DNA from: Raillietiella orientalis
Taxonomy: Eukaryota
Reading direction: 5' to 3'
Length of the DNA stretch: 64,000 nucleotides
Assembly (NCBI GenBank): GCA_036172245.1
Contig: JAYWIR010000026.1
Coordinates: 2,852,001 to 2,916,000 of the forward strand
Both the position numbers and the translations under genes were made by a program. The notes beneath the pieces are model-generated. The model was not told the origin of the DNA. It saw only the letters and a list, made by a program, of their open reading frames with translations, and did not search any database. Position 1 is the first letter of the stretch. Each line of letters begins with the position of its first letter. Shown in pieces: positions 11,624-54,710 of this stretch.

Positions 11624-11687
11624 TTCTGCCTAATCCTCCACCCACACCACGCAAGAGCACCAACGGAAATGGAACTCAGGAGCAACG

Positions 11688-20367: not shown

Positions 20368-20380
20368 CCAAGGCCAGTTG

Positions 20381-27130: not shown

Positions 27131-27310
27131 GCCGAGTCGGTGAACTTGCTCCGCGGCTCGAAGTATTGTGCGCTTGACAACTTAATCAGTTCATTGTGCT
27201 CGTGTGTGCCCGGAAAGGGGAAGTTTTCCAGAAGAAACAAAAAAAGAAGCGGCGAGGAGATCGCGGCAAAAGACCTGCAGTGGTCCCGTGCAGCAAGACC
27301 AGCTGCCAGG

Positions 27311-29127: not shown

Positions 29128-29140
29128 GTCTTCCCCTTTT

Positions 29141-32100: not shown

Positions 32101-32650
32101 CGGGAGTGAACGGTTCAACCTGTTAGCGATCGGCACGACGCTCTGGAGGAGTGACCTTCCGCCGGGCACCCAGGATGACCTCCTGATGTTTTATCACGGA
32201 GGAATCCAAAGTGGGTCCCGATTGCAGCACTTCACAGGAAGACGGGAAGACCGAGACTGCGCAGCATGTGGAGACGACGACACGAGACTTCACGTCTTGA
32301 CGTGTCCCACACTACTGCATGACTGGCTGATCCTGAAAAGGATCATAGGACTTACCAACAAGTCCGTTATGGAGATCCTCGCCGGGATGTTTCATGAAGA
32401 TGGTAATGTTCCCTGTTACAATCCCATGGTGAGGACGACCATAGCCCTCTTCATCACCGCCATACTTGTGCGGTGGTGGAAAATGAGGAAAGCCAGGAGA
32501 GCCGCACCACCGATGGAGATCCTACAAGGGCTCTTGAAGAGGGAAATCGGCATCAGGAACTGCGGGAAGATCCACGCCTGGACGTACCGATTCATCCTGA
32601 AGAGGATCCACGACGACGCCCGGGACCATCCAGCTGGAATTCCCCCCTGA
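29141..32650 (+). CDS. Element I ORF2: uninterrupted APE endonuclease-reverse transcriptase-zinc finger (1169 aa from ATG 29141)
   Basis: ASWNVNG, CLQET, AGDLN, IDHV, SDH, WRPIS, DMEKAFD, GVRQGDSLS, YADD, KYLG and CAACGDDDTRLHVLTC all in one frame. Confidence 0.95.
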   Translation: MASSPSTARRINIASWNVNGVVDQGKRRRIVRTIAQQDIVCLQETHRMGLEISQRIERRFNGQMFVNEGERNTKGVAVLIKNQLAPTILEVFCPQPGRIIGVRLAWSATVHLILVNVYGPHRLKHRCAEALHATLRQKVAPKDVVIVAGDLNILDEIIHSEDARGRTPYRRLSEEFGLVWRTASHKPIDHVLHSTELGNRIQGFRDTMTTVSDHPLVRFSLRTENPRRKQGTRAALISMPAWFETHFGHQAVLEAILRATTIRRVADWDSMKHRIHLFANMQFGDRRLRQEAYRELNIQDRSFSKYFDQYESRYVLNNIKEEVGVLEKRNLATDIFCIRYDGQKRQSSEDIVDAFHRHYTKHFRRQQLCRSRQQAFLSYLEKRTDDLQRNRLEDEFSEEEVKTAFGQLRKDVAAGPDSVPITHYQRYLHAYLRLFHQLTLCIREEGRLPQSFYESRMRLLPKGGDSTQIAQWRPISILNSDAKWLAKIWSNRLGKVMSRLISPVQTCAVPGRHMSDNVKCAQATVGLSRYVGENLVLVFTDMEKAFDSIDHGMLLKVLEKLGLPEHFSNFVRAVLQNQYCRIKINGQETAAIRMERGVRQGDSLSSMLFVIYMEALSSFIEKSGRLQGITIDGQRLTHLAYADDLLFFIKGERNQRAFLDVVDLMDQGLGLKINAQKSQLLLVGILDLSALAGRGFRTVDTAKYLGVYIGDDSASKLLWTEILGKTAKEAAKYTRTDLGMKRKANIWNGVLLPKVLFGAAFARMNKDTTREFDKRQRKTLWGHYRPRVRLCRPREEGGSGMKSLAHSMEIMDTRHILDIATYWDDWPYAAHRAYALLLNNSKGLMTALLGRAGKWNKIDPTWTRKQRLVRKHQIKIVPRSRELWQDESILVIPWLLPVPPDTRSWIYQRSRVTLLQIREWRRGGYLHQTRILRYTEMMLGRFTHRTREVWFNHKDFAWSRVTRTNLRRLIQENDRDTSALQEATGHYGSERFNLLAIGTTLWRSDLPPGTQDDLLMFYHGGIQSGSRLQHFTGRREDRDCAACGDDDTRLHVLTCPTLLHDWLILKRIIGLTNKSVMEILAGMFHEDGNVPCYNPMVRTTIALFITAILVRWWKMRKARRAAPPMEILQGLLKREIGIRNCGKIHAWTYRFILKRIHDDARDHPAGIPP

Positions 32651-32787: not shown

Positions 32788-34147
32788 GCCGAGTCGGCGA
32801 TGGGGCGACTGCATGCAGCGTGCTTTTGCTCGTCGCGACGCTGCTTTTTACGGCTTTCGTAGCCTTTGCAGTGGGGCCTGCGCTGCAGTGGGGCTGTCCG
32901 GAACTCCGAAGGGACAACGGAACGGCGCAAGAAGTCTTCGCACTGTTGCGATCTTCCTGTTTTCCTACCTTTCCCTCCAGGGTGTTACGGATATTTCCTG
33001 GTTCCAGGCTCGGAAAGGTGCCTGCGAGTTCGGCAGAGAGGGAAGGCACGGCACGCGTCAAACCCTCGCGCCCCTTTTTAATTGGCTTCCCCGCCGTGAC
33101 TTTTCCCTTTCGGGGCGTTGCGGGCGGGGATGCTTTCTTTTTATCCGCCGATCGCTCGTGGTTTTTTTCGAGTGTTTGCGGACGACGTTTTTTATTTGCC
33201 GCTGCTGCTTTTCGTGCAGTGGTCTCTTGAACCCGACGAATTTCCGCTGCGGCTCTTTTTCTTGCAAGTACCGGGCACTTTTTGATTTCGTGCCAGGAAT
33301 CTTTGCAATAGCGGCATCTTGGAGAGGGGCACTCTTTAATTCGGTGCCCCTCCTTGCCGCACTGCTCGCACGCGCGAGTCTGGCCTATGAACCACAGGTG
33401 AACGACCGTGCCGTTCACCTGCAGCTGCTCAGGAACAACACGCCTGTTCGCGACGGTGATCCGCGCGGAGGCTTGTCCAATGTGGACAGAGGGGAAATCC
33501 TTAAGAGGATTTGGCCTCCTCCACAGAGCGTGCACGGTGGCGAACTTCGCCAGCACACTTACGACATCGCGGTCGGAGATTTCCGGTTCGATGTCGCACA
33601 ATTGAACGACAAAAGAGTCGTCAATCGCGGTAGGTAGGACTTCCTTGCCATTGATGGTTAACGGCGTACGGAGAAGGCGCTGCACAAGTGCTGCGTTCTT
33701 GCACCGAATCTTTGTATATTCCATCCTGCCAGCAGGCATTATGGCAAGGAGTTCCTCCTCGCGAACGCCGATACGGACGAGCTCATCATTGAGATCACGA
33801 CCGATTCTCCCGTTGAGGGGTCCACTGACCTTATAACGGAGTGCAGGCATGTATCCTGATGACACATATGCCTGGAACTCCGCATCGCAGGGTCCTGGTC
33901 TTTGGGAGGTAACGGCGGCGTAACTCCGCACCGGGGGCGAAGAAACCATTACGGAGGATGCGGCCACTTCAAGTGCAGCTGAAGTGCATCCAGTGGCTTG
34001 CTCCTCCACACTATCCTGTGTACTGGCCATGTTGCACTATGCTACTTGGCAGATTGCACAGTAACACACAAGTGCGAGCAAAAACGCAGGCACAAAGTTG
34101 CCCGATCGTTGGCGCGGATAGACGCGGAAACACGTCTGCACTGTACG
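32788..34147 (-). mobile_element. Segment J: 5' end and ORF1 of another family, cut by H/I
   Basis: ORF from 34030 with CEQCGKEGHRIKEC and CRYCKDSWHEIKKC; 5' AGACGTGTTT motif at 34128-34137. Confidence 0.9.
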
Positions 34148-37100
34148 AGCGCAGGAGATCGAACGGATCTCGGATGGGCGGCTGTTGTGGCGTTGCGGCA
34201 CCGCGAAATCAAGCGGTGTCGCCTTCCTGCTTCGGCCAGCCATCGAGACCGCAATAAAGGACGTTCGGTTCGATGACGCAGGTCGCGTCGGTCAACTGAC
34301 TCTCAGCTGGTCCGACTCTATCGACCTGGTCGTCACCAACCTATACGCTCCTAGCGGAAACAACGCGTTGAGGGCGAAGGCAAGAAGGGAATTCGACCTT
34401 GCCCTGAGACGCGATTGGCTGACCGATGCAGGAGTTCGCAAAGCGCACCTGATCGCAGGTGATTTCAACCTGCGCCTGCTTTCAGGTGCGCCGGATACAC
34501 TGAACGACCGCGTCCACGAGTTGTGCGCAGAAATGAACACGCGCAACTTGTTGGCCGGAGACACGGCCATGGAAAGCAGCATCGATCACGTGTACCTTGA
34601 TCAGCACCTATGCTCTCGGGTTGGCAGGCGCGGCAAGGTACCATCCGAGCTGTCGGACCATGGTCGGATCATGTTCGAAGTGCGTCCGCGCGACAAGGGC
34701 CCCCCCTCGTCAGCGTGGCGTCTGCCAGGGGACTGGCTGAAGTTTCCCGACGCGGCGGAGCACCTCCGCGCGTTTATTCGGAGCTTCAGGATGCAGACAC
34801 TTCAGGACTGGGACCGCTTCAAGCGGTCGGTTCAGGAGTTCTGCGATCAGTTTTCCCAGCATCGCCTACCTGCGGGATTTGGAAAGGGGCCGCGTAACGA
34901 AAGGCGCTATCTTCAGGCCCGACGTTACGCGACAACCTCCGACATGCGCAGGTTAGCAGAGTATCGAGCGGGAGCCGAGAGGCAAGCCTGGCAATCCGGG
35001 TCGGCCAGCTTGCTGGACGACCAGGGCCGGGAGCACTCGGTTCCCGCTCAGAAACGCGGGATAGTCAGGAAATTTTACTCCTCCCTGTACGCCAAGGCGC
35101 CTCCGGAGCGGGACGTCTCACGACTTCTGCTTCCGGAAGGTGCTCCAGCGATCGGGGAGGAGGAGAAAAGAAGCCTCTACGAGATCAGCCCGGAACAAAC
35201 ATATGCTGTTCCCGGGCGAAGCATGGAGGCGAACCTGTTCCACGCTTCCACCTGGCTAGAGCTCCAACAAGAAAGAAGCTTAGTGCGCAGCCGGAATTCC
35301 GGTGCGTGCGCCGGCAAGGGGTTCGATGGTCGGGTGGGGGAGGGAGCTCTTGCGGTCGCTGTCGACTTGCGTAAAGCGTTCGACAGCGTCGACCAGAATC
35401 TCCTTCTGGAGCTTCTGGAACGCTTGGGCTTCTCGGCCTAATTAGTGGCCTATATGCGCTCCTGCTAGCGCGATGCGCTCATCAATGTTACTTTCATCGG
35501 GCAGACCGTGCACTGAGTGCCGGTGCGGCGTGGGATCCGGCAGGGAGACAGCCTGAGCCCCTTGCTCTTCAGTACCTACTTTTAGTTGGTACTGAGAGCG
35601 TACAGGGAGACTCTTGCGCACCTGCCGCACGACTGTGCCGGTACGCCGGCCGTTTCAGCATACGCGGACGACCTTCTGCTGCTGCTCCCTATGTCGAGCC
35701 CGGCTGCGGCGGTCGAGGAGTTCTTCCACCTGCTGCATCGGGGAACCGGACTTACGGTGAACAGGGCGAAGTCGTCCGTGATGCCAGTTGGTGCGGCGTG
35801 GGCAGGGCAGCAGGACTGGGTCCGTTTGGGGATCCACACGGTGGAGTACTCCAAGTACCTTGGTGTGCCGTTGGGGGACTACTCCCCTGCGGAAGCGTGG
35901 TCCGGCTGCCTCCAAAAAGTAGAGACGGCGATCGGCCTGTTCCGAGGCGGCAGGTTTTTCCTGCCTGAACGGGCCGCGGTTTGGAACACGTTCGCGGCTC
36001 CTCTCCTCCGCCCCCTGCTTTTTGTTTGCCCCCCCACAGAGAGAATTAAAAAGCGGACAAAGGACCTCCTCCGTATCGCCCTACGGGGCAACTGGAGGGC
36101 CCGATTCCGCTTAAAGGACTTGTGCGCTCCTCGTCGGGATGGTGGTCTGGGCCTCCTGACGCTTGAGCGGCTGGAGCTTCAGCTCCAACTCCGAATGTCG
36201 GCACTCGTTTCAGAGTTGTGGCGCACCTGTTGGTGCGTCCCTGCACGTCTCTTTTTCCAGCAAGCCACCGGCAAAACGGGACTGACGTCGTTTCTTGCAC
36301 TCCGTCGCGGCGTCAACCGATGCGGACTACAGCTACGGAGGGTGGCTGCGGTGTATCGCAAGAACCCAGGATTGGTCACCTGTCGCACTTTGAACGGTAG
36401 TGCCTGGTTGCAGGAAACCGTTCGAACGTGGGGACAGTTCGGCATGCAACGCTCCCAACAGGAACGAAGGTTCCTGTTGGGGGGTTACAGTAGTTACACG
36501 CTCCGCGAGATCCTGGAGGATCCAAAGAAGAGAGAGTAGGCAGGAAGAACCCTCATCGCTGCTGCGCTGCCCTCCTTGATGGAAGATCTGGACAGCAATG
36601 TTGCGTCGAAGTGGGTGGTTGCAGTAACAATCTCAGGAAAGGAGATGAAGATAGGAGTGGAAGACGGGCCAGTTAACAGACGCTGCGACCCCGAGTACGC
36701 CTCCAAATGGACTTCTGCGCTGGGGCGCGTTGCTCGATGTTACCATTGAACATCTGAAGTGGCCCCCTGTGCTCATGAACACTTCCGCCCTCCCCTTAAA
36801 ATGGCAGGAGTTGGCTCTCCTGTTGCAGCACTGGGGACTCCCCTGCAACGCCCGCCGACACCACTGGACCTGGGGATCGGTGTACCCCAATTGCGTCTGG
36901 TGTGGGGAACGGGAGTCCCTCCCCCACCTGCTAGTGGATTGTGTTGCCCTTCGGCCCCTTCAGTTTCGCTTTGCCGCCGCCATCGGAATCCCCTGCGGCA
37001 AACCCAGGGACGCACTGAAAGCCCTCTTCGTTGCCGACGCCCTTCGGCCAGCGGCCTCGTTAGCAGCTTTGTGCTGCCTACGTGGGATCGTCACCGCTTG

Positions 37101-37478
37101 GAGCAAGGCTACGGGAGGATAACACGACCATAGTGCCATCCAGCCTGCCTCCCAGTTACTGAGGAGGGCGTCCCGATGGCCCCACCTGGATCCAGGAATA
37201 CAGAAGGAGCTTGCCGGCATCCTGCAAAGGATGCAACGGCCCCACCAGCAAGTGTGATCCCTTCCCTTACCCTCCCAACTTTCTTTTCTTTTTTGTTTTG
37301 TTTTTTTTTTTTTTTTCCCCGTTCCCCCTGCTGCCGTGGTGGACCGTACCGGTCTGGGAACCGGTGACCCGGCAGGCTCTGTGTTTCTTCATGCGTGGCT
37401 TGAGCAATGGTCCAGCCACCGCACGTCTTTGTAAAATTTTATTTCACAATAAAAGCTCCGGCGAAATCCGGGTGAAAA
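34148..37478 (+). mobile_element. Segment K: chimeric ORF2 (family-B endonuclease + family-L RT and 3' end) with an internal deletion
   Basis: Starts mid-APE (EIERIS); near-identical to B up to 35183, then L-like; AATAAA 37448-37453. Confidence 0.9.
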
Positions 37479-37494
37479 TCTACTGCCTTGCGTG

Positions 37495-40400
37495 CTCCAT
37501 GGTGGACGTGTTTTCTCGGTGCTCCTCGTGCCAGGAAGTCTACCACAGTGCAAGCGTCGTGTGGTTCCGTGGTCGATCAGGTAGCGATGCCTGACGCGAG
37601 CACCAGGGATGGCCAGGGGGCAGCGGAAACGCCGCCCCCAGAGGCGATGGAGAGCCAGGGGGCGGCGGCAACGTCGCCCCCGGAGGCGATGGAGGTGGGG
37701 GCATACGCACCCACAGAATCGGTCCCCGCTGCAGCGCGGTCGTGGAGCGCCGTTTTGTAGGCGCCATCGCCTGCAGGCGCGGCGGAATTGTCGGCCTATG
37801 TAGAGGAGGGGTACAACCCCTCATTGTTCTACAAGGTAGGCAATCTTTATTCTTTAGAGAGCGCGCGCGCCTTCTCGAATATCATGCGCGCTCTCGATAT
37901 GAAAGAGGAGGATCTCAGCGCTATGACCATTCGCAGCGGAGGTCAGTACGTTGAGGTCATCTGCAAACAAGCAGAGCTGGCCCAACGGCTGCTGAAAACC
38001 CCCGTTGTGATGGGGAAGCGTAGGCTCTTCCTCACTACGGCGGACCGCAGCATAGTGGTCCTCCTGTTAGGCGTAACTGCGCGAATGCGCAAAGAACAGG
38101 TTCGCGCCGCTCTGGAACAGTTCGGAACGATCCACGCGCAGTGGACGAAAGTTAGTCCTTTCGAGGGCTACAGGATCCTGTAACACGGCCTCACGGCTGC
38201 ACGCGTGACCGTTCGGGAGGGCTGCACCCTACCCCACAAACTGGTGTTCGAAGGCAAAACCGTCGGTCTCTGGTATGTGGGGAAGCCGAAATACTGCGGT
38301 TTCTGCAATACGTCGGGCAACCTCGAAAAGAGCTGTCCCAACGTGTAGTGCCAAGTATGCGGCACAATGGGTCACACGAGGGAGGTGTGCCCAAAAGCAG
38401 CAGTGCGGGTGGTTTCCAAGAGAAACCTTAAAAAACGCGTCCGGCTGCTGCAGAAAAAGCTGGCGGCGAAAGCTGCCGCGAAGGGGTCACCAGTTGCGCC
38501 AAAGACCCAGGCCGCTCCCGAGACCACGGCAACCAACGCCGAAAAAGTTGAGGGAGCCGGCCAGGAGACTGGGTGGCAATTGGCAAAGGCCAAAAAATCA
38601 AAGAAGAAGAGTAGACTGAAGAAAAAAATCGCCTGCCAACAGAAGAAGATAGAGCTGGGTAGCGCGATAATTAAAGAGTGCAGCGTCGTCGTCGAACGCG
38701 TTCTTGATGTTTCCGAACGCTGCCAGAAAGAACTGGCCGCTACCGACGACCTCCACTCTGTTGACTCTGTCAACAGCGAGAAGAGCGAGCCGGCGGCGGC
38801 GTCCGTCATCGACACCACCATCGATGACGTCGCCTTCGCGCGAGCCGCGAAAAAGCTGGCTGCCTCGTTACAGCCAGAAACCTCCAAGGCAAGTAAGCAC
38901 GCCTTAAGGCGTCCGGCCTCCCCTCAGGAGTCCCTCATTTCCAACCCCGAGGTGGAAACCCGAAGCGCAGCCTCCAATTCCACGGCACCCCGCAAGAAGG
39001 CTGGACGTAAGTCCACAAAGCCGAGGAAGCTCGTCTCCCCCGTCGAAGGGAAAGAGATGACTTCCGCAAGCGAGGGTGCCATGAGCGTGGGAAACTCGCG
39101 GGATCCGTCGCCCGAGAGACTCCCACGCACGGACACGGAGGGGATGGAGGGGGTGGAGGCCGAACAGGTGCCTCAGGTGACTGAGAAGGCCGAAACCCCC
39201 TTCCACATCCCGCCTACCTCGCAAGAGGCGGGCTCCCCCACACCTTAATCTTCTTAGTAGTAATGCCGGGAATCTCTTCCCGCCGTCGTCTGCGCAACGC
39301 CGTTTGGATCGTGAACGGCATGACAGACGCCGGCAGGAAACGAGACATGGCCGCCCTTCTGGAGTCCTACGACCTTGTGCTGCTGAAGGAGATCCACGTG
39401 ATCTCTGCAGAACAAGCGCAAGAGATCGAACGGATCTCCGGATGGCGGCTGTGATACAGGTGTGGGATTCCGAAAAGTTGTGGTCTTGCCTACCTGCTTC
39501 GGCCAGCCGTCGAGGCCGCGGCTCGGGGAGTGCGATTCCACGATCAAGGTCGTGTCGTCCGTCTGACTCTCATGTGGTCCGACGCGATCGATCTGATTGT
39601 CACGAACGTGTACGCACCGAGCGGCGCTGTCCTAATGAACACGAGGGCGAGGAAAGAGTTTTTCCTTGCCCTCCGGCGCGATTGGCTGACCGTAGCAGGC
39701 GTGCGGCATACCTATCTGCTTGCAGGAGATTTCAACGTTCGCCTCAAACCAGATGGGCAGAATCCCGAACGTAACCTGGTCAACGAGGTGTGCATGGCGG
39801 TGCACACCTGTAATTTGTTGGCCAGTGCACCGGGGATGGAGGACAGCATCGACGTCGTGTTTCTTGACCAGCACCTGCTCCCTCGCGTGGGCAGGCGCGG
39901 CAAGTTACCGTGCGAGCTGTCCCACCATCGCCCGCTAGTCCTCGAGATCCATCCGCGCGAGAGGGGCCCCCCTTCCTCAGCGTGGCGTCTCCCAGGGGAC
40001 TGGCTGAAGCTCCCGTACGCGGCGGACCATCTCCGCACGTTCATACGGAGCTTCAGGTTGTGGCACTCTAGGATTGGGACCGCTTCAAGCGGTCGGTCCA
40101 GGAGTTCTGCGACCAGTTCCCTCTGCGCCGCCTACCTACGGGTTTTAAGACCGGGGTCCGCAACGAACGAGCCTACCTGCAGGCCCGTCGTTACGCCAGG
40201 ACCCTTGACATCCGCAAACTGGCGGAATACAAAGCGGCAGCCGAGAGGCAAGCCTGGCAGTCCGGATCGGCCAGCTTGCTGGACGATCAGGGCCAGGAGC
40301 ACTCGGCACCCGCCCAAATCCGCGGCCTGCTGCGGAGTTATTACTCCCTTCTATATGCCAGGGCACCTCCGGAGAGGAACGTCTCACGACTCCTGCTTCC

Positions 40401-43057
40401 GAAAGGCGCTCCAGCGTTTGGACAGCAGGAGAGAAAGACCCTCGACGAGCCTTTCACGATGGACGAGATCCTCTCGGACATCGGAAAACTCAAGAGCCGC
40501 ACGGCTGCAGGGGAACACGGCCTGCCCGCGGAGTTTTAGCAAACATTCGCGGCTGAGCTTACTTCCCTGGTACAGCAACTTACCTTGCTGATACGCGAGA
40601 CAGGTGACGTTCCGCCTCGTTTCGTTCGGCAAAGGTGCGTCTCCTTCTTAAGGGAGGGGACCTGTATAGGATGAACAACTGGCCTCCCATCACAATAGTG
40701 AATGCGGACGCCAACTTGCTAGCTCAGGTTTGAGTAGAGAGGTTGAGACGGTTTGGCAACATCTTCATCAGTTGGAAACTGACATATGCTGTTACCTGGC
40801 GAAGCATGGAGGCGAACCTGTTCCACGCCTTCTCGTGGCTAGAGCTCCAACAAGTAAGGAGTTTGGTGCGCAGCCGGAATTTCGGTGCGTGAGCCGGCAA
40901 AGGGTCGGATGGTCGGGTGGGGGAGGGAGCCCTCGCGGTCGTAGTCGACTTGCAGAATGCATTCGATTGCGTCGACCGGAATCCCCTTCTGAAGCTTCTG
41001 GAACGCTTGGGCTTCTTGTCCTCATTAGAGGTCTATCTGCGCTCCAGCTTACGCGACGCGCTCATTGACGTTTCTTCCAGTGGGCAGACCGTGTACGGCG
41101 TTCCGGTGCGACGTAGGATTTGGCAGCGAGACAGCCTTAGCCCCTTGCTCTTCAGTACCTACTTTGAGCTGGAACTGAGAGTTTACAGGGAATCTCTGGC
41201 GCACCTGCCGCACGACTCTGCTGGTACGTTGGCCGTTTCAGCGTACGCGGACGACCTTCTGCTGCTGCTCCTTATATCCACTTCGGCTTCGGCGGTCAAG
41301 GAGTTCTTCGACCTGTTGCATCGGGGAACCGGACTAAAGGTGAACAGGGCGAATTCATCCGTGATGCCAGTTGGTGCAGCGTGGGAAGGGCGGCAGGACT
41401 GGGACCGTTTAAGGATCCCTACGGTGAGGTACTCGAAGTACCTTCGTGTGCCTTCGGGGACTACTCCATTGCGGAAGCGTGGTCCGGCTGCCTCCAAAAA
41501 GTAGAGACGGTGATCGGCCCGTTCCGAGGCGTCTGGTTTTTCCTGCTTGAACGGGCCGCGCTTTGGAACACGTTCGTTGCTCCTCTCCTCCTCCCTCTGC
41601 TTTTTGTTTGACCTTCACAGAGAGGATATAAAAGCGGACAAACGACCTTCTCCGTATCGCCCTTTGAGGCAATGGGAGGGCCCGAGTCCGCTTAAAGGAC
41701 TTGTGTGCTCCTTGTCGGGATCGTTGCCTGGGCATCCTGACGCTGGAGCGGCTGGAGCTTCGGCTCCAGTTTCGAATGTCGGTACTTCTTCCAGAGTTGT
41801 GGTGCACCTATTGGTGCGTTCCTGCACGTCTTTTTCTTCAGCAATCCACCGGTAAGACGGGACTCACGTCGTTTCTTGCACCGCGTCGCCGCGTCAACCG
41901 ATGCGGAATTCAGCTACGGAGGGTGGCTGCGCTGATACGGGGAAAGCAAGGATTGATCACCTGTCGCCCTTTCTAAGGTAGTGCCTGGTTGCAGGGAACC
42001 GTTCTCACGTGGTAACAGTTCGGCATGCAACGCTCCTAACAGAAACGAAGGTTCCTGTTTGGGGGTTACAGAAGTTGCACGCTCCGTGAGATCCTGGAGG
42101 ATCGAAAGAAGAGAGCGTGGGCAGGAAGAACTTCCCTCGTTGCTGCGCTGCTCTCCCTGATAGAAGATCTGAACAGCAATGTTTGGGCGAAGTATGAGGT
42201 TACAGTGACAATCTCCTAGAAGGAGAAGATAGGAGAGTGAAAGACGGGTCAGCTGAATGACGCTGCCACCCCGAGTACGCCTCCCCATGGACTTCTAAGC
42301 TGGGGTGCGCTGCTCTACGTTTCCACTGAACGTTTGAAGTGGCCTGCGGTTATAATGAACACCTTTACCCTCCCCTTAAAATGGCAGGAGTCGGCATTCC
42401 TGTTGCAGCACTGAGGACTCCCTTGCAACGCCCGCCGACACCACTGTGCCTGGGGAGCGGTGGAACCCCAATTGCGTCAGGTGTGGGGAACGGGAGTCCC
42501 TCCCCCACGTGCTAGTGGATTGTGTTGCCCTTCGGCCCCTTTGGTTTTGCTTTGCCGCGGCCATCGGAATCCCCTGCGGCAACCCCAGGGACGCACTGAA
42601 AGCCCTTTTCGCTGACGACGCCTTGCGGCTCGCGGCCTCGTTAGCAGCCCTGTGCTGCCTGCGCGGGATCGTCGCCGCCTGGAGCATGGCTGCGGGAGGA
42701 CAGCGCAACCAGGGTTCCATCCAGTTAGCCTCTCGGTTCCAGAGGAGGGCGTCGCGATGGCCCCATCTAGACCCAAGCATGCAGCAAGAGCTTGCCGGCA
42801 TCCTGCAAAGGATGCAACGGCCCCACCAGCTGCAGTGATCTCTTCCCGTAGGCTGTAATTTTTTGTTTTCTTTTGGTTTTGTTTTCTGGTTTTTCCCCCT
42901 TCCCTCAGCTTCCGTTCTGGACCGTACCGGTCTGCGAACCGGTGACCCGGTAGGCTCTGGGTTTCTTCTTGCGTTTCTGAAGCAATGGTCCAGCCACTGC
43001 TCTTCTTTCTTATGGTTTATTGTTACAATAAGCGCCTCGAAGAAATCCAGGTAAAAA
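37495..43057 (+). mobile_element. Element L: full-length family-L retrotransposon, many disablements
   Basis: GGACGTGTTTT at 37504; ORF1 37587-39248 with in-frame stops; TAATG at 39261-39265; ORF2 39263-42838; 3' UTR like K. Confidence 0.93.
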
Positions 43058-46000
43058 TCGAATGCTTCATGCAAATGTGCTGCTACTACCAAGGCTCCCG
43101 GCCTTTCTCCCGTCCGTCCTTACTGGAGCCCGCTGTCGGCAGAAGGTCTAGCCGCGGTTGGGCTGTCCGTCGCATCTCGCTCTTGCAGCTGCCACCAGGT
43201 GCGCGCCAAAAGAAGGTTCGCATCCATGGGTCTACCTGATGCAGATTAAGACTGCAATGGGCTCACTACGGACTCCGCGACTTGCCCTAGGCGCGTGTCC
43301 CACAGCTTCGAAAACAACTTGACGTCCGTATTCACTAACCTGATCGGACGCCAGTTGTTGAGATGGCGCATATCTCTTCCTTTTGGAAGGAAACGCTCCC
43401 TTGCTGAGCGGAAGGAAGAAGGGACATTGCCCGTCACCCTAATCAACGTTGAGAGTCTGAGCACCAGTGGGGCGAGTTCCGCAGCGAAGCTGTGATAGAA
43501 CTCCGCGGGCAGCCCGTCCTCACCTGCCGTCTTGCGTTTCTTCAGTCCTGCGATGGGCGAAGAAACTTCCTCCAACGAGAAGGGCTCGTCGAGACGGGCG
43601 CGTTCCTCCTCGCTGATGACGTGTGCACCCCGCTGCAGGAGCAGTTCCTAGAGGATCCTCTCCGCGGGGGATTTGGCGTAGAGCAAGAAGTGACGCTTCA
43701 TTGTTTGCCGTACTTCGGCAGGAGCCGTGCATTCATTGCCTGGTTCGTTGAGCAGAATAGCCGCTCCAGACTGCCAGACCTGGCGCTCGGCCCTCGCCTT
43801 GTACTCTGCGAGGTGCCGAACTTGCGCACGTCTAGAAAAGGTGCGCGCCTGCAGAAATTCTCTGCTATTGGCCACGCCTTTTCCAAAGCCGCGCGGTAGG
43901 AGGTGCAGGGGTACCGGTCGCAAAACTCGCGAACCGATCTTTTAAGATGTTCTCATTCTGCGAGCTGCCGGATGGCAATGCCGCGAAGGAACTGACGAAG
44001 ATGCTTCGCCGCCTCCGGATGACTAAGTCAATCCGCCGGCATCCTCCAAACATTGTTCGCAGGTCCTTTGCCTGGCGGGAGTAGCTCGAACTCCAGCCTA
44101 TCATGGTTCGATAAGATGGAGAGCACCCTGCCTCTCCTTCCCATTCGTGCGAGTAGGTGTTCATCGAGGTAGAGGTGATCCACGCACCTTTCCAGTCCAG
44201 GCTCGCCGGCTTCCAAGTTATGCGCGTGCACCGACGCGAATGCCTCTTCCACCTGCGACCGTTCCGCCAGGGACCTCGTCTCGTTGGAAAGCAGGTGGAC
44301 GTTGAAGTCCTCTGCGACGAGATGTGCCACTCTGGCTCCGGAGTTCCTAAACCACTGGCTCTCAAGCACATCGAAGAACTCGATTCTTTCGGCGCGCCGA
44401 TGAAAGCCGCTCGGCGCGTAGACGTTCGTCAGGACGAGGTCGATTGAATCTGACCACTTGAGTACAAGTTGGCGTATTCGCCCTTCCTGGTTGAATCGAA
44501 CGCTGCGCACCGCTCCTGCCATCCTACTATTAACGAGAAACCCGACTCCGCACGATTGTGCAAAACCTTATCGCCAGTACAGGCTGCCACCCGCGCACTG
44601 TACAATTTCGGCAACCTCCCCGTCGGAGATGTGATGCATCTCCTGAAGGATCGCCAAGTCGAAATGTCGCAGGGTGTCTGACCCGCCGCTCCTCTTTCCG
44701 TCCTTGCGCAGCCCGTTGACGTTCCAACATGCTACGCTGAACCGACGAAGAGAGGCGACTTCCTGCATTAAGGCTGGGAAGGTGAGCACAGGTTTCTTGC
44801 CTTGTCCGGCGAGTGGTCACGAGACAGAACGGCAGAGTTTGGAGAGGGGACATCTCCATTCGAAGCCGCCCTGCCTGTTGCCGGTAGCTCAGAGGTGAGG
44901 TTCATCCTCTCCTCTTTGCTCCCCGGCAAAAGATCCTCTTCGGCGACCACGCGCTTGCGGGTCTTCGGAAGGCGATTGCGCGGTTTCGGGCGAGTTTCGC
45001 GCTGTGTGCTCATTCTGTCGGACTCTGGATCAGAATCCGACAGTGGAGCGCTTGCCAGGCGCTGCTTCTGTTTTCCGGAATTGGGGAAATCATTTGATGC
45101 CTGTTTCTTAGCGCTTTCTGCTACTGCGGCTGGGACTTTCGCCCTTTTAGCCGCAGTAGCAGCTTCCGCTCCATTCGCGATGGGAAGACTGCACAGGAGG
45201 AAAGGATCGCAATCTTTTTTGGGGATGGTTTCGCGTGTTTCTTTCGCCCGCTCACCTCCACACAGAGCTGCGAGGACCTTAACCGTTTCTTTTTAATTAC
45301 CTTTCTAACCTGCATTCAGCCGTCTTCCTTCGCGTCGCAGTTATCTTTGCCCTCCTGAGATGGCGCTGCGTCCGCAGATGTAAGAAACGCCGCCTTGGCT
45401 GCCTCTTGAAGTGCTGCCTCCGCGCAGGCGTAAGCGCCTCCCTTAGCGATCACGAGAGGCGCTGCCTCTTTCAGATCGGAGGATCCGCGCGTTGCCTTTG
45501 CGACCGCTGGGGGTACTGCTGTAGCGGTTGTGCTCGCCCTAGCAGTTTCTTCCTTGGCCGCAGTAGGCGCTGCGTCCGCGCGCGAGGGCTGCGGGTTTGC
45601 CGGCTGTTTCGTCGCGGCACTCGGCGCCTGGGGCACCTTGGCCGCGGTAGGCTTAGCCGGCACGGAGTTCTTTGCCCGCGGGCGCGTTTTTCCCGTATCG
45701 GGCGAACGACCGCATTCCTCGCCACTTGCCGAGGCCTTGATAGGAGGCTTTGCGGTCGCGATGTTGTCAGTAGGAGGCTTCTTGCCTTTCGGCGCACTCT
45801 CTCCTGCTTTGAAGTATTCGCTGCGAGTCTCGGTGAAAGTTCGCATTCTTCGCTAGCTTCCGTCGGCTCTGTAGCCTCAGGCTTCGCCGCGACGAGTTTT
45901 TCTATGTTTTTCTCCCATTTTTTGTGGAGGGGAGGAAGAGTTTTCTGCGCATGCGCGCTCGCGCTTTTCGCAACGCTCTCCGAAGTTTTGAGGTTTTTTT

Positions 46001-46923
46001 ACCTCGATTCGCGGCGTTTATTTCGCGGTGCGAAACGCGCTTCGTTCTTTCGCTTTTCGGTTTTAAAAGGAGCTCCGGGCACGTTTCTTTTGTGTGCCCG
46101 GGCTCGTGGCAATAACAACAAGCAGCCGACGGACACTTCTAAGGCGGTGACCCTTCTGCCCGCATTTCGCGCACACAAGCGTTTGCCCCGCAAACCACAG
46201 GCGGACAGTCATTCCATCCACCTGCAGTCTTGTGGGCATTGCCCGGCGATCCGCCATCGTCACTCGCACTTGCGCGAGCCCGCTGTGATGGTCTTCGAAA
46301 CCCTCAGCAGGGTTTGACAACTTCCAAAGCGCGTGAACGGAGGCGAATTTTTCAAGGGCCTCCACGACCTGGCGGTCCGAAAGGCCCTTGCTCACTCCAC
46401 TCAGCCGGACAACGGACGATTGATCCGCAGTGGTGGGGAGTATTTCCTGCCCACGAATGAGCAGCGGCGTGTGCAGCAAACGCTGCGTAAGGAGAGCGTC
46501 CTTACTGGACACCTCCCAGTAGCCGCACCCACTCATGGGCATGATGGACACCAGTTGGCCTTTTTGAACTCCAATCCGTTGGAGTTCCTGGCCAAACTCG
46601 CGCCCAACCCGCTCAGGCATAAGGACACTTAACTTATACCTGAGTGCAGGCGTGTAGCCATTTGCTACATACGCCTGCAGCTCAGGACTGTCGGGCGAAG
46701 GTCCCATTGTAGCCGCGAGGGCAGCGACCTGGGCGAACGTCCTCGCCGTCCGCGAGGACAGTGGCTCCTTGCTAGCAGCCGAAACCGCCATCTCAGTTGC
46801 AGGTACCGTTTCCTTCTTGCGGCTGATGTTCCTCTTTGCTCTCATTGCAGCACAGAAGCACAGCAGAACAAGAACACACAAGAGTCAGCCTACCGCGGAA
46901 CGACGCAAAAGCACGTCCGTATG
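43058..46923 (-). mobile_element. Segment M: 5' part (ORF1, APE, RT N-terminus) of a J-like family, cut at RT motif A by L
   Basis: ORF1 from ~46845 (AYVANGYTPALRYK, CAKCGQKGH); TAATG at 44766-44770; VACWNVNG and NNWRPI; ends at AHLHEAFD; 5' GGACGTGCTTTT at 46907-46918. Confidence 0.9.
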
Positions 46924-48832
46924 CGACCGGCGCTAATGCGGGAAAAGGGAGATGTTCCCGCTTCCTTCCGCTCAACGAGAGTGCGGGTCCTGCCGAAAGA
47001 CGGGGATTTGCGCCAACTCAACAAGTGACGTCTGGTCACATTGGTAAATTCGGACATCAAGTTGTTCTGGAAACTATGGAACGCGTGGCAGGGCAGAATC
47101 GCCGAGTCCTAGGTAAGTACGGAGCAGACGTATGCTGTTCCGGGGCGGTCCATGGACGCGAATCTCTTCTTCACGCGAAAATGGTTCAAGTTGCAGCAGC
47201 GCGTGGCGCAGCAGAGCCTGGCAGCCGAAAGCGCCGCTGCCAAAGGTAAGCGGCGGGGCTGAAGGCACAATGGAATGCCGGGGGCCTTAGCGGTCGCCGT
47301 CGATCTCTTCAAAGCGTTCGACAAAGTAAACCAGGACTTCCTTCTGGAGCTTCTGAGACGCCTAGACCTCCCGACGCAGCTCATCGCCTAATTGCGCTCC
47401 AGCTGGCACCATGCTTTATGCTGTATCTCTTTTAGCAGGCGCCACGTGTACGGCCTTCCCATACGGTGGGGTATCAGGCAGAGAGACAGCTTAAGCCCCA
47501 GCTCTTCAGCATCTTCTTTGAGTTGGTGCTGAGGGCGTACAGGCTGACGCTGGCCAACTTGTTGAGCTCCTGCCCGGGAACTGCGGCCGTGGCTGCCTAT
47601 GCTGACGACCTTCTCCTGCAGCAGCAGGAGCATGTCAACCCTGGCGTCCAGGCTTGAAGACTCCTTCGAGCTCATTTATCGGGTAGCGGGTCTGAGCGTG
47701 AAGAGGACGAAATCAACCGTTGTACCGGTTAGCTCTTTGTGGGAGGGGCGGTCCGACTGCATCCTCCTGGGGAACCCCACAGGTAGGTGCTTTAAGTATC
47801 TTGGCTTTCCCTTAAGGGCCTTCTGTCCAGCCTAAGCGTGTTCGGACTTTCTTCACAAGACCGAGACTGCTCTGGGACGGATTCCAAGGCTGCAGGTTCT
47901 TCCTGCAGAAACCAGACTTTGCGTGGAACGTTTTCGTTTCCATCCTCCTCCGTTTCTTCTTTTTTGTTTTTTCCACGCCTTAGTCGGCTAAGCGTCTGGC
48001 GAAATGCCTGTTGCTATTCGCCTTGTGGGAACCGGTGAACTCCAGGATCCACCACAAGGACTTGGCGGCTTTTCAGCAGGATGCATGATTGGGATCGCTT
48101 TGGCGCTCTTGCGGATCGAACAGCTAGAGCTGTTCCCCATGCTGCGCCCAGCTCTGGATTGGTGCGCTTAAACGCAGCTGCGGCTGCGGCGCTACATGGG
48201 TGGCAACGGACATCGTTCGTTTTACCTGCGCACGGAGCGCTTCTAGAGAGGATTCGGCTTCCCTCTGAAGCAGCTCGCCTCGCTTCTGGGAACGCATTTG
48301 TGATCTTCTGCCAGCCGACGAACCTCAACGCCTGGAGGCAGGAAGCTTTATTGTCCTAACCAGCGCAACAGGATGTGTCCCGTTTGAAACACCGCTGCGT
48401 GAACCTTTCTCCATACTGTCAATTGAGGGAGGTGTTGAAAGACCAGGACCAGTGGACATGCCTAGCCGCTACGTTTCTCGCCGAAGCACTTTCTGCACTG
48501 ATGGTGCAAGACGACATTGACCTACCGGCGAAGTGGGAGGTCGCTTGCAGTATCGCATGCGAAATTCGACTTCTGGGTGGCTGGAGGACTTGCGAGCTGG
48601 CAGACGCTGCCACGCCTCGCCTTTGTGCCAAGGGACTTCTCAGGTAGAGGGAGCTCCTCGGAGTGCCCGCCGAAGAACTTGTGGTCCCTTCTGCGTCCTT
48701 GGACGCGACTGTCTTCCCCCTTCGGTGAAAACAGGACGCTTTTCTGCTGTAGCATTGGGGTCTGTACTGCAACCAGCGCGCGCACTTGGTTTACGTTGGA
48801 GTTGCGTCCCCGAATTGTGCAACATGCGGAGT
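46924..48832 (+). mobile_element. Segment N: degraded RT-to-finger portion of ORF2
   Basis: LMREKGDVPASF, AVDLFKAFD, YADD, FKYLG and PNCATCG across several frames. Confidence 0.85.
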
Positions 48833-48834
48833 AC

Positions 48835-49329
48835 CGAATGCCAAGGTACTTGATGTTCTCGCCCGCGGGTATCCCCAACCGGTTCCAGTTCGACCATCAT
48901 GCCCGCGACGAGTCCGATGAAACAATCGACGACTTTGCTCAGTTTACCTCGAGACATGTCCCACGGTGCAGCAACTCGAAGAAATCCTCAAGCGCCCATA
49001 CCGGGGTGGACCCTTGAAGCAGGGGCAGAAGGTCGTCGGCATAGGTCGACACGGCAAGCGTACCGGAACACGAGCTCGGCAGGGTTGCCAAAGTTTCCCT
49101 GTATGCTCTCAGCGCCAACTCAATGTAGATGCTGAAGAGCAGGGAGCTGAGCCTGTCACCCTGCCGAATGACGCGACGCACCGGCACTCCGCACACGTGC
49201 CGGCCGCTGAAATTGATATTTATAAATGCGAAGCGCCAGCAGGAGCGCAGGTAGGCCAGGAAGACGGCCGGAAATCCCGTGCTTTCCAAGCGCTTGAGGA
49301 GGAGATCTTGTTCGACGCAGTCGAAGGCA
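48835..49329 (-). mobile_element. Segment P: RT fragment (AFD to KYLG)
   Basis: ORF 48939-49289 with RQGDRLSS and YADD. Confidence 0.85.
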
Positions 49330-50712
49330 TGGGATACGGCAGAGAGACAGCCTGAGCCCCTTGCTCTTCAGTATCTACTCCGAGTTGGTACTGAGAGAGT
49401 ACAGGGAAACTCTGGCGCACCTGCCGCACGACTGTGCCTCTATGCCAGCGGCTTCAGCGTATGCAGACGACCTTCTTCTGCTGCTCCCTATGACCAGCCC
49501 GGCTTCGGCATTCGAGGAGTTCTTCGATTTGCTGAATTGGGGAACCGGACTTACGGTGAAAAGGGTGAAGTCGTCCGTGATGCCAGTTGGTGCGGCGTGG
49601 GAAGGGCAGTAGGACTGAGTTCGTTTAAGGATCTCAACGGTGAGGTACTTCAAGTACCTTGGTGTGCCGTTGGGGGACTACTCCCCTGCGGAAGCGTGGT
49701 TCGGCTGCCTCCAGAAAGTAGAGACGGCGATTGGCCTGTTCCGAGGAGTCAGGTTTTTCCTGCCTGTACGGGCCGCGGTTTGGAACACGTTCGCTGCTCC
49801 TCTCCTCCGTAACCTGCTTTTTGTTTGCCCCCCCCACAGAAAGAATGAAAAAGCGGACGAAGGACCTCCTCCGTATCGCCCTTTAGGGCAACAGGAGGGC
49901 CCGTGTCCGCTTGAAGGGCTTGTGCACTCCGCGTCGGAACGGCGGTCTCGTCCACCTGACATTGGAGAGGCAGGAGCTTCAGCTCCAGTTCCGGATGTTG
50001 GCCGTTGTGCCGGAGCTGTGGTGCACCCGCTCGTGCGTCCCTGCACGTCTCCTCGTCAAGGAAGCCACCGGGAAGACGGGACTCACGTCCTTTCTTTCAA
50101 TCCAAGGCTCCCGCATCAACCGATGTGGGCTACATCTGCGGAGGGTGGCTGCCTTGGTTCGAAAAAATCAAGGATGGATCACCTGCCGCCCCGCGAACGG
50201 TAGTGCCTGGTTGCAGTAAACCGTTCGCACGTGGGCACAGTGCGGTATACAAGGCGCTCAACAGAAACGACGGTTCCTGTTTTGGAGTTGCAGAAATTAC
50301 ACGCTCCGTGAGATCCTGGAGGATCCGAAGAAGCGATCGAAAAGGGAGAACCCCGGTCAGAGAGAACCCTTCTCGCTGCTGCGCTGGCCTCCCTAATAGA
50401 TCAGGACAGCGATGTTGGGGCGAAGTGGGGGGTTAATGTAACCATCTCCAGAAAGGAGAAGAAGCAGCGAGAGTCAAAGACGGGCAAGTTAACAGATGTT
50501 TCGACCCCGAGTACGCCTCCCCATGGACTTCTGCGCTGGAACGCGCTACTCGATGTTCCTATTGAACATGTGAAGTGACCCCCGGTGCTCAAGAACATTT
50601 CCACCCTCCCCTTGAAATGTAGGGTGTCGGCTCTACTGTTGCAGTACTGGGTACTCCCCTGCAACGCCCGCCGTTACTACTGTATCTGGGGAGCGGTAAA
50701 CCCTAATTGTGT
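49330..50712 (+). mobile_element. Segment Q: 5'-truncated family-L RT fragment
   Basis: Starts at GIRQRDSLSP; closely similar to the K and L 3' halves; stops at PNCV. Confidence 0.88.
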
Positions 50713-50719
50713 GACTTGG

Positions 50720-50988
50720 ACGGTCCGTCCTCCCCTGGCGCCTTGCGCCTCTTGAGCCTCTTAATCCCGGCTATAATTTCGCTGGTCGTTAAGGGCTCGT
50801 TCAGGTTTTCCTTCTCTTCCTCCTTTATGGTCGAGTGTCCATCCTCAAGGACGTGCTGCGAGACGTCCCATTGCGTGGGTATCCTGGCGTGAAGTGAGAA
50901 ATAAAATCTTTGCACAAGGTGCCGTATCCCCGCTGCGGCCGCTGGTCCGTTTACCTTGTCGTCCAGCAGGCTGTCCGACGCAGACTGC
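50720..50988 (-). mobile_element. Segment R: family-A-like EN-RT linker fragment
   Basis: SLLDD...IRHLVQRFY...EPLTTSEIIAGIKRLKRRKAPGEDG. Confidence 0.82.
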
Positions 50989-51890: not shown

Positions 51891-52610
51891 TTATTCTGCA
51901 GGATCTCGTGGAGATCGTACGGCAGAAGCGGGAAGCGGCGGCGGCGGCAGCAGCATATAAGTGCAGCCGAGATCGTGCCTAGGCGGGTTGCTCTGCAGGA
52001 GCTTCATAATAAACGGGTTGCCGTGGGACATGACCTCAGCTTGCAATTTCATCTGGAGGTCGCGGAATTCCGCGTCGGGCATGTCCTCCATGGCCGCGCT
52101 CCTCAGCTTGTCCACGTATCTCTGCATGATGGACACTGCTTCCGTCTCCGAGGAATCGCCTTCGACTCGGTCGCGATTCAACAGCCTGCTTTCTCCTCCC
52201 ACATACCTTCCCAGCTTCTGTGCCATCTCCTTCGCCGACTCGATCACCTCTTTTGGGAACTGCACGAGTTCCGCTATGCTGAGGCCGAAACTCTGGTCGC
52301 ACGTCCCGGGAGTGACCTGATACAGCAGGGTCAGCGATCCGTCTGCTGCGAGTGCCTCCACATGAAGGTTGCTGACCGTCTTCAGGTCGTGTGCCAGGGC
52401 CGTTAACTCATGAAAGTGGGTCGCGAAGAGACAGAAAGCCCTGATGTTAACAGCGATGTGCTCAGCAATTGCCCACGCCAGCCTGAAGCCGTCGTAGGTC
52501 GACGTACCCCGCCCTAGCTCGTCGATTATGATCAGAGATGACGACGTCGCAGATTTCAAAATGCTGGCAGTCTCGATCATCTCGGACAGGAAGGTAAACA
52601 TCCTGTCCAT
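51891..52610 (-). CDS. MSH2: MutS homolog MSH2 C-terminal ATPase/dimerisation region (terminal exon or gene fragment)
   Basis: TFLSEMIETASILKSAT..SLIIIDELGRGTSTYDGF.LAWAI..FCLFATHFHELT..DQSFGLSIAELVQFP. No upstream exons were recognised, so it may be a pseudogene. Confidence 0.9.
   Translation of the reverse strand: MDRMFTFLSEMIETASILKSATSSSLIIIDELGRGTSTYDGFRLAWAIAEHIAVNIRAFCLFATHFHELTALAHDLKTVSNLHVEALAADGSLTLLYQVTPGTCDQSFGLSIAELVQFPKEVIESAKEMAQKLGRYVGGESRLLNRDRVEGDSSETEAVSIMQRYVDKLRSAAMEDMPDAEFRDLQMKLQAEVMSHGNPFIMKLLQSNPPRHDLGCTYMLLPPPPLPASAVRSPRDPAE
51902..51982 (+). CDS. DNAJC2: DNAJC2-like last exon
   Basis: After a 58-nt GT-AG intron the frame continues DLVEIVRQKREAAA, matching the ELVEMVKAKKAA-type DNAJC2 C-terminus; stop TAG at 51980-51982. 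Confidence 0.78.
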   Translation, partial: DLVEIVRQKREAAAAAAAYKCSRDRA

Positions 52611-52829
52611 TTTTAGTCTCCTCTGTTAGTCAGTTTACACGTGGAAAAAGATGTGAGATACGAGTGCAAAACATTTTGATTGACTTCAACGTTAGAGATA
52701 CTTTTCTAATTCGTTGCAAAGGATCACGGGATACGATACTTTCAAGCTTTGTGGATATCTCTCCTTTCTGTGCCAGCTTTCCGGAGGGAGGCTAGTTACA
52801 AATTTTGTTACCCGTAATAGGTGACCTTC

Positions 52830-54710
52830 AGCTCCGAGTAAAAACAAAACTTAAGTCTCAGTAGAGCATATGAGTGGCACACAGTCCAGCAATGTTGAGT
52901 GTTTCCTCATAGCACTGGTACTTCGAGTGAAGCTCTCCTCAGGTAAATTCCATCGCAGACCTGATGATCCCACTTTACCAGCTTCCCTTCTTTCTTTAAA
53001 TGGCCTAAGTCGTCATTCGCTTCCTACATGGAGAACTCTACAGCTAAGCATGCCTTCTTCTTGGGTTTCGAATGACAGTATACTGGAACTGTGTTGGAAT
53101 GTGAGAGGGGCAAATCTTGCTGTGCATGCTTGTGAGCCTTGCATTTCTACGACTTATATGTTAGTGTGCTGCTATGCAATCGCTCGCCTAGGATCGTTGA
53201 AAAGCGCTGGAAACGTACACGAACGCCTTTTTCTGCGTGAAACCATGCTTCCATCCCCGTCTTTAGCAGTGATCTGCATTAGTGAAATGCACGCAGCACG
53301 CAAAGCCACAAGATGGGCCTTAAAGACAGAGTTATTTACTGGACGAAACCCATCAGCTTTATCTATTATGCTCTTCTGAAGTTCTTGATACACTAGGACC
53401 AAGAATGCTGTTCGAATCTGTACGCTTGTTGTAAACGCCCCGATGGAAGCTGATAAAAAAGCATGCCATACTGCAGTTCCTGAACAGTTTGCTGGCTCAT
53501 GGGCACTGAGACAATGTTCAGATATGCGAACACTGGCCGATTTATAGAAATGCATCGCAGTCTCTTCATGACCTCTAGTTTAAGTGCAAGAGTTCCCTGG
53601 ATGATGTCCCGCTGCACGAGAGAACTCTAAAATTGAAACGGACTTAATCGCCAAGTCTAGTAGTTTACTTGCTGGTTTCTCTTGCATCCGTGGCACCGCA
53701 GCTTTGGAACGGGTGTAAAGTCACCCTTCTGCGGAAATATTTTGCAAGCTCTCACTGTCCTGTGGCGAGATTGATTATCCCGACTTAATACTAAGTGCCA
53801 GATGTGGCAATCGGTTGCGGCATGTGAACTAAGGAGAGGGGGTATGAGAGGTAAGGAAACAGTCGAGGTAGGACGAGTTAGAAGGCGTGACCAGTCGTCG
53901 TTACACTCGCAATCTCAGGCAGAGAGAGCACGCACCAGGAATGCCGAAAGACTCTGCACTCCCAAGTTTGCAGCCAAAAGGACTTCTGCATCGGGGTGAG
54001 CTGGTGAGAATTCCTTGTATCTCGGGTAGCACCCTGCGCTATTGAACAACCGTACCTTTTATCCCAAAAGGCAGTATTTGGCACTACTGCCGATGCAGTG
54101 GGGTGTTTCATGCAACGCTCGCCGATATCTCTAGATCCGGGTGCAGTAAGCACAAATTTCAGCAGCTGCAGGAAACGCAAAACATTCGTACACCTGCTCT
54201 TGCACTCTTATAAGCTGCAACTGCTGCGAAAATGTTCTGCAGTAATGGTACTCAGAACCCCATGTAGCAATACCAGGGGTGGAAAGAAACCCCTTTTCCT
54301 CTGCAGCACATTGCCACCTGTACCGCGTCTAGCAACTGTTTGCTTTCTACGCAGGATTGTAGCCTGAAGCGATGGCAATGGGGAAGGAAGCAAAAACAAC
54401 GCCATGCACTTCGGCCTACGTTTTTTGAAGAGAATAAAAAGAAAGCCTTACTAGAAGAAGACTTTTGAAGTAGCCGGCATCCTCGGAAAGATTCAGAGGT
54501 GGGGCTGCTTCTTTATACCCTTTGGAGTTATAAAGATGTATACTTATTTTATATTCGTCTTTTGTTTTTATTTTCCCCGATATTTTCTGCTGTCAAGGCC
54601 GTCTTACCGGTCTGCACCGGACTATCGGCAAGCTTTACCTAAGTTAGAACATGAAAAGTTCAACGATATTATCATTTCGTGATGTTTATTGTATTCAATA
54701 AACGATCCTG
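52830..54710 (+). mobile_element. Old, heavily decayed 3' half of the same retrotransposon group
   Basis: QPKGLLHRGEL, WGVSCNARR, HLLLH, TLPPVPRLATVCFLRRIVA and AGILGK; a 3' UTR-like T tract, ctgctg...accggtctg...cggcaag and AATAAA near 54697. 5' boundary uncertain. Confidence 0.75.

Follow-up and report, generated by a model that had tools for sequence, protein, structure and literature searches.

LINE insertions at the reverse transcriptase motif A codons of other LINEs in a nested cluster from Raillietiella orientalis

Does a retrotransposon that inserts into other retrotransposons choose the codons for the active site of their reverse transcriptase (RT)? The question is raised by a nest of long interspersed nuclear elements (LINEs), which are non-long-terminal-repeat (non-LTR) retrotransposons, in the genome assembly of Raillietiella orientalis (GenBank GCA_036172245.1). 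The window analysed is the 64-kb stretch of contig JAYWIR010000026.1 from position 2,852,001 to position 2,916,000 of the forward strand; it is numbered here from its own first nucleotide, and every result below comes from that stretch alone. A preliminary description had proposed that one family, L, targets the DNA for the catalytic motif A (K-A-F-D) of the RT of other elements, and cited three junctions, L/M, K/L and P/Q. All three sequences that it placed at these junctions are present there. Two of the junctions appear to record independent insertions, one of L into an element M and the other of the L-like copy Q into an element E, and for these the description holds; the third, K/L, is of a different kind, and the proposal as a whole is partly supported. 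As judged from the junctions, L-like elements have entered two older LINEs, in antisense orientation, at RT motif A DNA.

The element map combines self-blastn, tblastn with intact open reading frame 2 (ORF2) and nhmmer, with a profile hidden Markov model (HMM) built from the full-length copies A1, A2 and L. The profile is 5648 positions long, with motif A near 3536-3550. Pfam domains PF03372 (Exo_endo_phos, the apurinic/apyrimidinic endonuclease, APE) and PF00078 (RT) are found in B2 ORF2 and in A2, and L, M, K, O, P and Q align to APE-RT ORF2 in tblastn and nhmmer. By these domains the elements are classed as APE-type, L1-like non-LTR retrotransposons. The nearest protein relatives (queries: B2 ORF2 and one A2 ORF) are L1-like, of RVT_1/Exo_endo_phos/zf-RVT type, and only 22-31% identical.

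Two insertions at motif A

L (37480-43058, plus strand) is a full-length, degenerate LINE with a 5′ untranslated region (UTR), a putative CCHC ORF1, APE, RT and a 3′ UTR without poly(A). Its 3′ end (...ccaggtaaaaat) matches the 3′ end of K (...ccgggtgaaaat), down to the same terminal bases. The bases that follow it, cgaatgcttcatg, read H-E-A-F-D on the minus strand. These are the motif A codons of M (43059-43073), and they are in frame with ~190 residues of M RT N-terminal sequence (...NNWRPIRLVNTDVKL...ALVVAAHLHEAFD). M itself (43059 to ~46932, minus strand; tblastn, nhmmer and 5′ UTR alignment) has its 5′ UTR, ORF1, APE and RT as far as motif A, and its 5′ end adjoins the element O. The junction that had been proposed between the L 3′ end and antisense HEAFD at 43058 is thus exact and in frame, after ...HLHEAFD, and when the motif A DNA of 9 copies is aligned, M breaks off at ...gcattcga. 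From translation and DNA alignment together, 43058/43059 reads as the clean 3′ junction of target-primed reverse transcription, for which the nick in the M coding strand would have fallen within the Asp codon or directly behind it.

The second junction is the start of Q (49328-50714, plus strand), a 5′-truncated element beginning at RT motif B (HMM 3691-5063) and missing its last ~585 nt. Q is L-like, with 83% identity to K and 79% to L, versus 72-75% to families A and Z. To its left lies P (48838-49333, minus strand; HMM 4028 down to 3536), an RT piece that runs from the (H)AFD of motif A roughly as far as the YLG motif and on the minus strand reads (H)AFDCVEQDLLLKRLE...RQGDRLSSLLF...YADDL. 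The claim that Q begins right after the antisense AFD of P at 49330 holds to within about 3 nt; ~6 nt at the joint (ggcatg) align to both partners, a microhomology of the kind that usually marks the 5′ junctions of truncated LINEs. Directly beyond Q there is a further minus-strand piece, P5 (50718-50995; HMM 3105 down to 2828, ...KRLKRRKAPGEDG; nhmmer E = 2.9e-22), so that Q is nested in a minus-strand element E, of which P is the left half and P5 an upstream piece. P is 68-73% identical to every family. Inverted P and the direct 3′ piece Q stand head to head with microhomology at the joint, as in the twin priming that gives 5′ inversions in L1. Twin priming was nevertheless rejected, since P is not L-like; P and Q also overlap by 337 nt in element coordinates, and P5 lies beyond Q.

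That the two hits are independent follows from the difference between their targets. M (HMM 1821-3577) and P5 (HMM 2828-3105) overlap in profile coordinates and no match between them was reported at E ≤ 1e-4, though each matches the elements Z and Z′ at ~70%; therefore M and E are different elements. The L/M and P/Q breaks lie 8-10 nt apart in element coordinates.

Both insertions conform to the orientation found throughout the nest. The nest is more than 50 kb long (7-50995) and nine levels were parsed from the combined maps. The parse gives, from first insertion to last, the order E(−), O(+), M(−), A4K-L(+), R(−), Z′-B1-B2(+), A3(−), Z(+) and A2-A1(−), with Q(+) as a side branch within E. 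All nine nested LINE-in-LINE junctions are antisense (one-sided binomial P ~0.002); for the 6 junctions with unambiguous terminal ends the same test gives P = 0.016. ORF lengths fall from the innermost elements outwards, from 1204 and 790 aa in B and 638 in A2 to at most 353 in L, M, O and Q, which fits the inferred order of insertion. On this parse most elements must have their left halves before position 1 of the window.

A proposed target and how it would be used

On balance the two hits probably reflect a real, sequence-based preference of L-like elements for GT^CGAAKGC, the antisense of the A-F-D codons, with a target duplication of 8-10 nt and target-like leaders. Insertion would be by sequence-directed target-primed reverse transcription. 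The L-like machinery would nick the coding strand of the target inside the A-F-D Asp codon, where the element strand reads GT^CGAAKGC, and make a second nick 8-10 nt further on. With the second nick so placed, M would retain ...AFD on the 3′ side and P would retain AFD... on the 5′ side, and the offset between the M and P breaks fits staggered nicks at a single target. The L-like RNA would carry a short 5′ leader resembling the target; with such a leader a later copy could land just upstream of a resident one, in the same register, to give pairs like K-L. Family A acts in just this manner at another site in the window.

The preliminary description also suggested that motif A is a target from which hosts cannot easily mutate away. 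This is an inference only; motif A may have been chosen through its conservation, or merely because its DNA suits the endonuclease.

Site specificity of family A

The pair A1 (639-6186) and A2 (6187-11721), both full-length and on the minus strand, is arranged head to tail (A2-A1) and lies antisense in Z, between the ...GVTLRNL and QDWDLFK codons of the linker that joins APE to RT. Both flanks of the interrupted Z are visible on the plus strand, Z-left at 7-638 (profile 2010-2634) and Z-right at 11722-14730 (profile 2644 to the 3′ end). The insertion is accompanied by a 16-nt target duplication: 623-638 recurs in leader copies at 6171-6186, 11706-11721 and 17343-17358 with 14-16 matches out of 16. 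The 16-mer GGAGATTCCGGAGCGT is both the A1 3′ flank in Z and the leader of the third family-A copy, A3 (14731-17358, minus strand; profile 2730 down to 7); A1 and A2 carry a 14/16 variant of it. The A2 3′ end adjoins the A1 leader in the same register and again with 14/16, a score that no null 16-mer reached.

A3 is in a second host, and its 5′ end meets Z′ (17359 to ~20366, plus strand; profile 2640 to the 3′ end) at the very nucleotide where A2 meets Z. The inserted copies are much more alike than their hosts: scored in steps of 250 nt, identity between A2 and A3 is 93-99% (mostly 96-99%), versus 66-85% for Z and Z′ (mostly 78-81%, ~79%). The step in identity, from ~97% to ~79%, falls exactly at the A 5′ end and rules out a simple segmental duplication of [A + Z-right] units (9097-14732 and 14734-20367). 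Gene conversion among the A copies is possible. Family A occupies both of the Z-type sites in the window. Its junctions show it to be site-specific here, with a leader that is a copy of its target, and the trait therefore exists in this LINE group. For family Z the likeness is weaker, the flank in A3 and the leader after Z′ agreeing at 10/19 (P = 0.009).

Evidence against a motif A preference

A number of observations weigh against a motif A preference of L-like elements, and the K/L junction is one of them. K (35184-37479, plus strand; HMM 3346-5642; nhmmer; 85% identical to L in blastn) is an L-like 3′ part. The letters at which its 3′ end stops do read R-K-A-V-D in antisense, as had been described; it is their attribution to the RT of another element that fails. 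The stretch in question, 'ctactgccttgcg', is the 5′ leader of L (37480-37503), directly after the K 3′ end and just upstream of the 5′ UTR core GGACGTG, so there is no third foreign RT. No RT or LINE homology was found on the minus strand of 37480-37700 by tblastn or nhmmer. As a 5′ UTR, the segment 37480-37590 can be aligned to the 5′ UTRs of A1, A2, A3, Y/B1, M and R, and has in common with them the core GGACGTGYYTT, the ATG being ~110 nt in. K and L are thus joined head to tail, as are A2-A1 and Z′-B1 and probably also a pair S-T, meeting at 54725.

The leader does, in favour of the preference, resemble antisense motif A. Its first 13 nt were compared with that motif in the L/M register, the null being every 13-mer in the transposon portion of the window. 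They agree at 8/13 for K and for L itself and at 9/13 for A1 and A2 (null P(≥9) ~0.0007 for A1), and each 3′ flank of L and K starts in the same register. The match to the M flank, however, is only 7/13 (null P(≥7) = 0.025), and the L leader is not among the best motif A matches window-wide. The leader may be a target-like relic. For family B, flanks are alike at only 5/16 (P = 0.42).

P/Q, moreover, is a 5′ junction. The Q 3′ junction, which would mark the first nick, is not observed because sequence is missing to the right of Q, amounting to 431 nt of E and ~585 nt of Q. Were this lost at insertion, the first nick for Q could have been anywhere within HMM 3105-3536. All three L-like copies are degenerate, there are just two events, and the left half of the nest, with the matching junctions, is outside the window.

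Occupancy also counts against the preference, since of the window's 11 motif A sites 9 have no insert (A1, A2, Z, Z′, K, L, O, B1 and B2). Those of A1 and A2 are empty though their 16-mer matches the M flank at 14/16; A1 and A2 are probably younger than L-like activity. In favour of it, among the three elements that must predate the L-like insertions (E, O and M), two have motif A occupied. The third, O (~46920-48835, plus strand; HMM 3165-5072), is an older LINE fragment whose motif A, near 47320, is intact and carries no insertion.

Alternative explanations

With so few events, chance has to be considered: antisense newcomers might land anywhere in the ORF2 of the previous element, and the two breaks at A-F-D would then be a coincidence noticed after the fact. 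The emptiness of most motif A sites and the lack of a foreign RT at the third claimed junction are what this would predict, and the other nested junctions are scattered (HMM ~1400, 1980, 2640, 2730, 3165 and 4028). In a simulation in which 9 nested events were placed uniformly on 5648 nt and a pair was counted when two fell within 10 nt, at least one coincident pair arose with P = 0.126, which is not rare. The observed pairs are two, however, L-like elements at motif A and family A in Z and Z′, and within each pair the inserts are of one family. For one pre-specified pair the simulation gives P = 0.0037, and for at least two pairs jointly P = 0.0064. The offset between the breaks and the in-register likeness of the leader are also as expected of a real target. 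Coincidence is considered rather unlikely.

The preference might also be for something smaller than, or other than, motif A. The endonuclease could favour a short word (TCGAA, for instance), or respond to some feature of structure or transcription, as it would by nicking the coding strand that is displaced when young copies are transcribed. Motif A would then be hit only because conserved DNA supplies the word in every family. That the occupied sites differ at 2 of 9 bases (tcgaatgct in M, tcgaaggca in P) speaks for such a word. Nicking of a displaced strand would explain why all nine nested junctions are antisense, and by nesting order each newcomer sits in the most recent element; families A and Z, besides, have other targets, in the APE-RT linker. 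A word of 5-6 nt would be frequent in each element, whereas the two L-like hits coincide in position, and the match of family A to its target spans 16 nt, which favours long recognition in this group. This explanation seems unlikely. Most improbable of all is that only one insertion took place, M and P being the halves of its target that became separated by duplication, rearrangement or assembly error. The M end and the P start do overlap at the motif (gcattcga and gccttcgac), like a target-site duplication. But P, a minus-strand 3′ half, should then lie left of M and instead lies right of it, and E has its own upstream piece, P5, without a reported match to the corresponding part of M. On these two grounds M and P were rejected as halves of one element. 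Nor are the inserts copies of a single insert, since truncation leaves Q to begin at HMM 3691 and K begins at 3346, while L is complete; Q is 79-83% identical to L and K.

Other elements of the nest

Right of Z′, family B extends to ~32797 on the plus strand as Y/B1, with a full 5′ end, and B2. The two are joined head to tail. B2 ORF2 is intact (1204 aa, 29036-32650, plus strand) with APE and RT, and ~90-92% identical to B1 ORF2 at 23370-26987; this family, which is of lower GC, may still be active. B2 is without the GC-rich 5′ 1.3 kb present in B1 (Y, 20367-21655). Between the B1 3′ end and the start of B1 homology in B2 there are 155 nt (27144-27298) with no other match in the window.

R (~32798-34140, minus strand) consists of ORF1 and a 5′ end. 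Its ORF1 scores 20.1 bits (E = 6.5e-4) against the zinc knuckle PF00098, just under the Pfam cut-off of 20.8, and C-x2-C-x4-H-x4-C strings are seen in the ORF1 sequence of L and M. Next to it is A4 (34136-35183, plus strand; profile 1980-3027), a piece of family A with 96% identity to A1 and A2. At 35183/35184 it is fused in the same orientation to K, with a clean 320-nt gap in the alignment, and looks like part of a template-switch chimera or the product of an internal deletion. Sense insertion of K into A4 was ruled out, as it is L rather than the remainder of A4 that follows the K 3′ end.

The 3′ ends of the elements have a common form: AATAAA, a CCCGGG-loop-CCCGGG hairpin and then ~7 nt ending in AAY (aaaat, tcaat, gcaac). 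No poly(A) or A-rich tail, nor any run of A, was found at these element 3′ ends. A long pyrimidine-rich 3′ UTR tract precedes the common 3′ end at 639-700 (minus strand), 14680-14730, 20320-20366 and 37430-37479.

O and Q are members of different families. Both lack their last ~580 nt and end at near-identical profile positions (5063-5072), at the C-x2-C of the C-terminal zinc finger. Each then runs into minus-strand sequence of E, the joints (48822-48838 and 50705-50720 respectively) showing microhomology of a few nt. Either repeated deletion or 3′ truncation of the RNAs could be responsible for this loss. The O/P joint is ambiguous over about 6 nt. A 'cgaatgcc' beside it was dismissed as a third L-type target, being inside the YLG region of P.

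Flanking DNA and searches elsewhere

Positions 1 to ~51000 consist of non-LTR retrotransposons almost throughout and have ~57-61% GC, lower in one family at 22-34 kb. To the right of ~51 kb GC drops to 40-51%, and a fragment of MutS domain V is found at 51894-52625 (minus strand; E = 1.9e-48), its best match being animal MSH2 at ~50-54% identity. The nest therefore adjoins host DNA, with an MSH2-like host exon ~900 nt beyond its end. Within the host DNA, 53942-54725 (plus strand) is the old, AT-rich 3′ part of a related LINE. Sequence like a 5′ UTR (gagcggac...) starts at 54726, directly after that LINE 3′ end, and the two may form another head-to-tail pair.

A scan of genome contigs with the 5′ UTR core gave 0 matches. 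One match (L001) came from a metagenome scan with the 3′ UTR pattern; it has no blastn similarity to the window and was taken as chance. A protein scan gave two distant loci in bacterial metagenome-assembled genomes, at 26-33% identity.

Relation to known LINEs and significance

Taken as a whole, the locus looks like sequence-specific APE-type LINEs in a Zepp-like nest. APE-type LINEs with sequence specificity include the Tx1 group, within the L1 clade, and the R1 group (R1, TRAS, SART). The sites that are known for site-specific LINEs are in rRNA genes, telomeres, small nuclear RNA (snRNA) genes and one DNA transposon: Tx1L targets the DNA transposon Tx1D, and Keno, Mutsu, Kibi and Koshi target snRNA or 5S genes and microsatellites. 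The window elements resemble these groups in having APE and RT, precise 3′ junctions and head-to-tail arrays, and in repeated insertion at one sequence (family A at both Z-type sites; two hits for L-like elements). As for Tx1L, their target is a transposon. They differ from both groups in that the target would be the antisense strand of another LINE's ORF2 (for L-like elements, the motif A codons). They are also without poly(A) or a target-derived tail, and their best protein relatives are only 22-31% identical.

The Zepp/ZeppL clusters are those of Coccomyxa, Chlorella and Chlamydomonas centromeres, and Zepp, unlike the window elements, is described as having poly(A). In green algae these L1-type LINEs are described as confined to clusters that were built up as new copies nested within resident ones; the clusters include tandem arrays and are GC-richer than their flanks, 61% vs 53% (PMC8226300, PMC3446292). 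The present nest is likewise a cluster of one LINE lineage, ~57-61% GC against 40-51% in its flanks, and the likeness is one of architecture. No defined target motif or strict antisense nesting is mentioned in the available text of the Zepp accounts (PMC8226300, PMC3446292). Also unlike the situation in the green-algal hosts of Zepp, the MSH2 fragment beside the nest is closest to animal MSH2, which makes a green-algal host improbable here. A full-text literature search, whose coverage did not include the original 1997/2003 Zepp accounts, found no description of a LINE that targets RT motif A. A defined target at the catalytic motif in another LINE's ORF2, combined with strict antisense nesting, would be new.

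A broader interpretation, which is possible and offered tentatively, is of a guild of LINE families that parasitise one another, each homing to its own short antisense ORF2 sequence with a copy of the target as its 5′ leader. L-like elements would home to the A-F-D codons, family A to the TLRNL/QDW linker of Z, and family Z to one in A, at a distance of 90 nt. Were this so, leader-bearing arrays would seed more insertions, and the nest, in which orientation alternates strictly, would grow as each newcomer disables the previous element.

Motif A targeting is at present a hypothesis resting on two events in one window, which hints at homing and cannot alone prove it. The window already contains a clean example of homing in family A, and within it antisense-only nesting is a striking rule. 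If true, homing by a LINE to its rivals' active-site codons would amount to transposon-on-transposon warfare, and would provide a concrete mechanism by which LINE-only nests (e.g. those of Zepp type linked to algal centromeres) grow in place without damage to genes.

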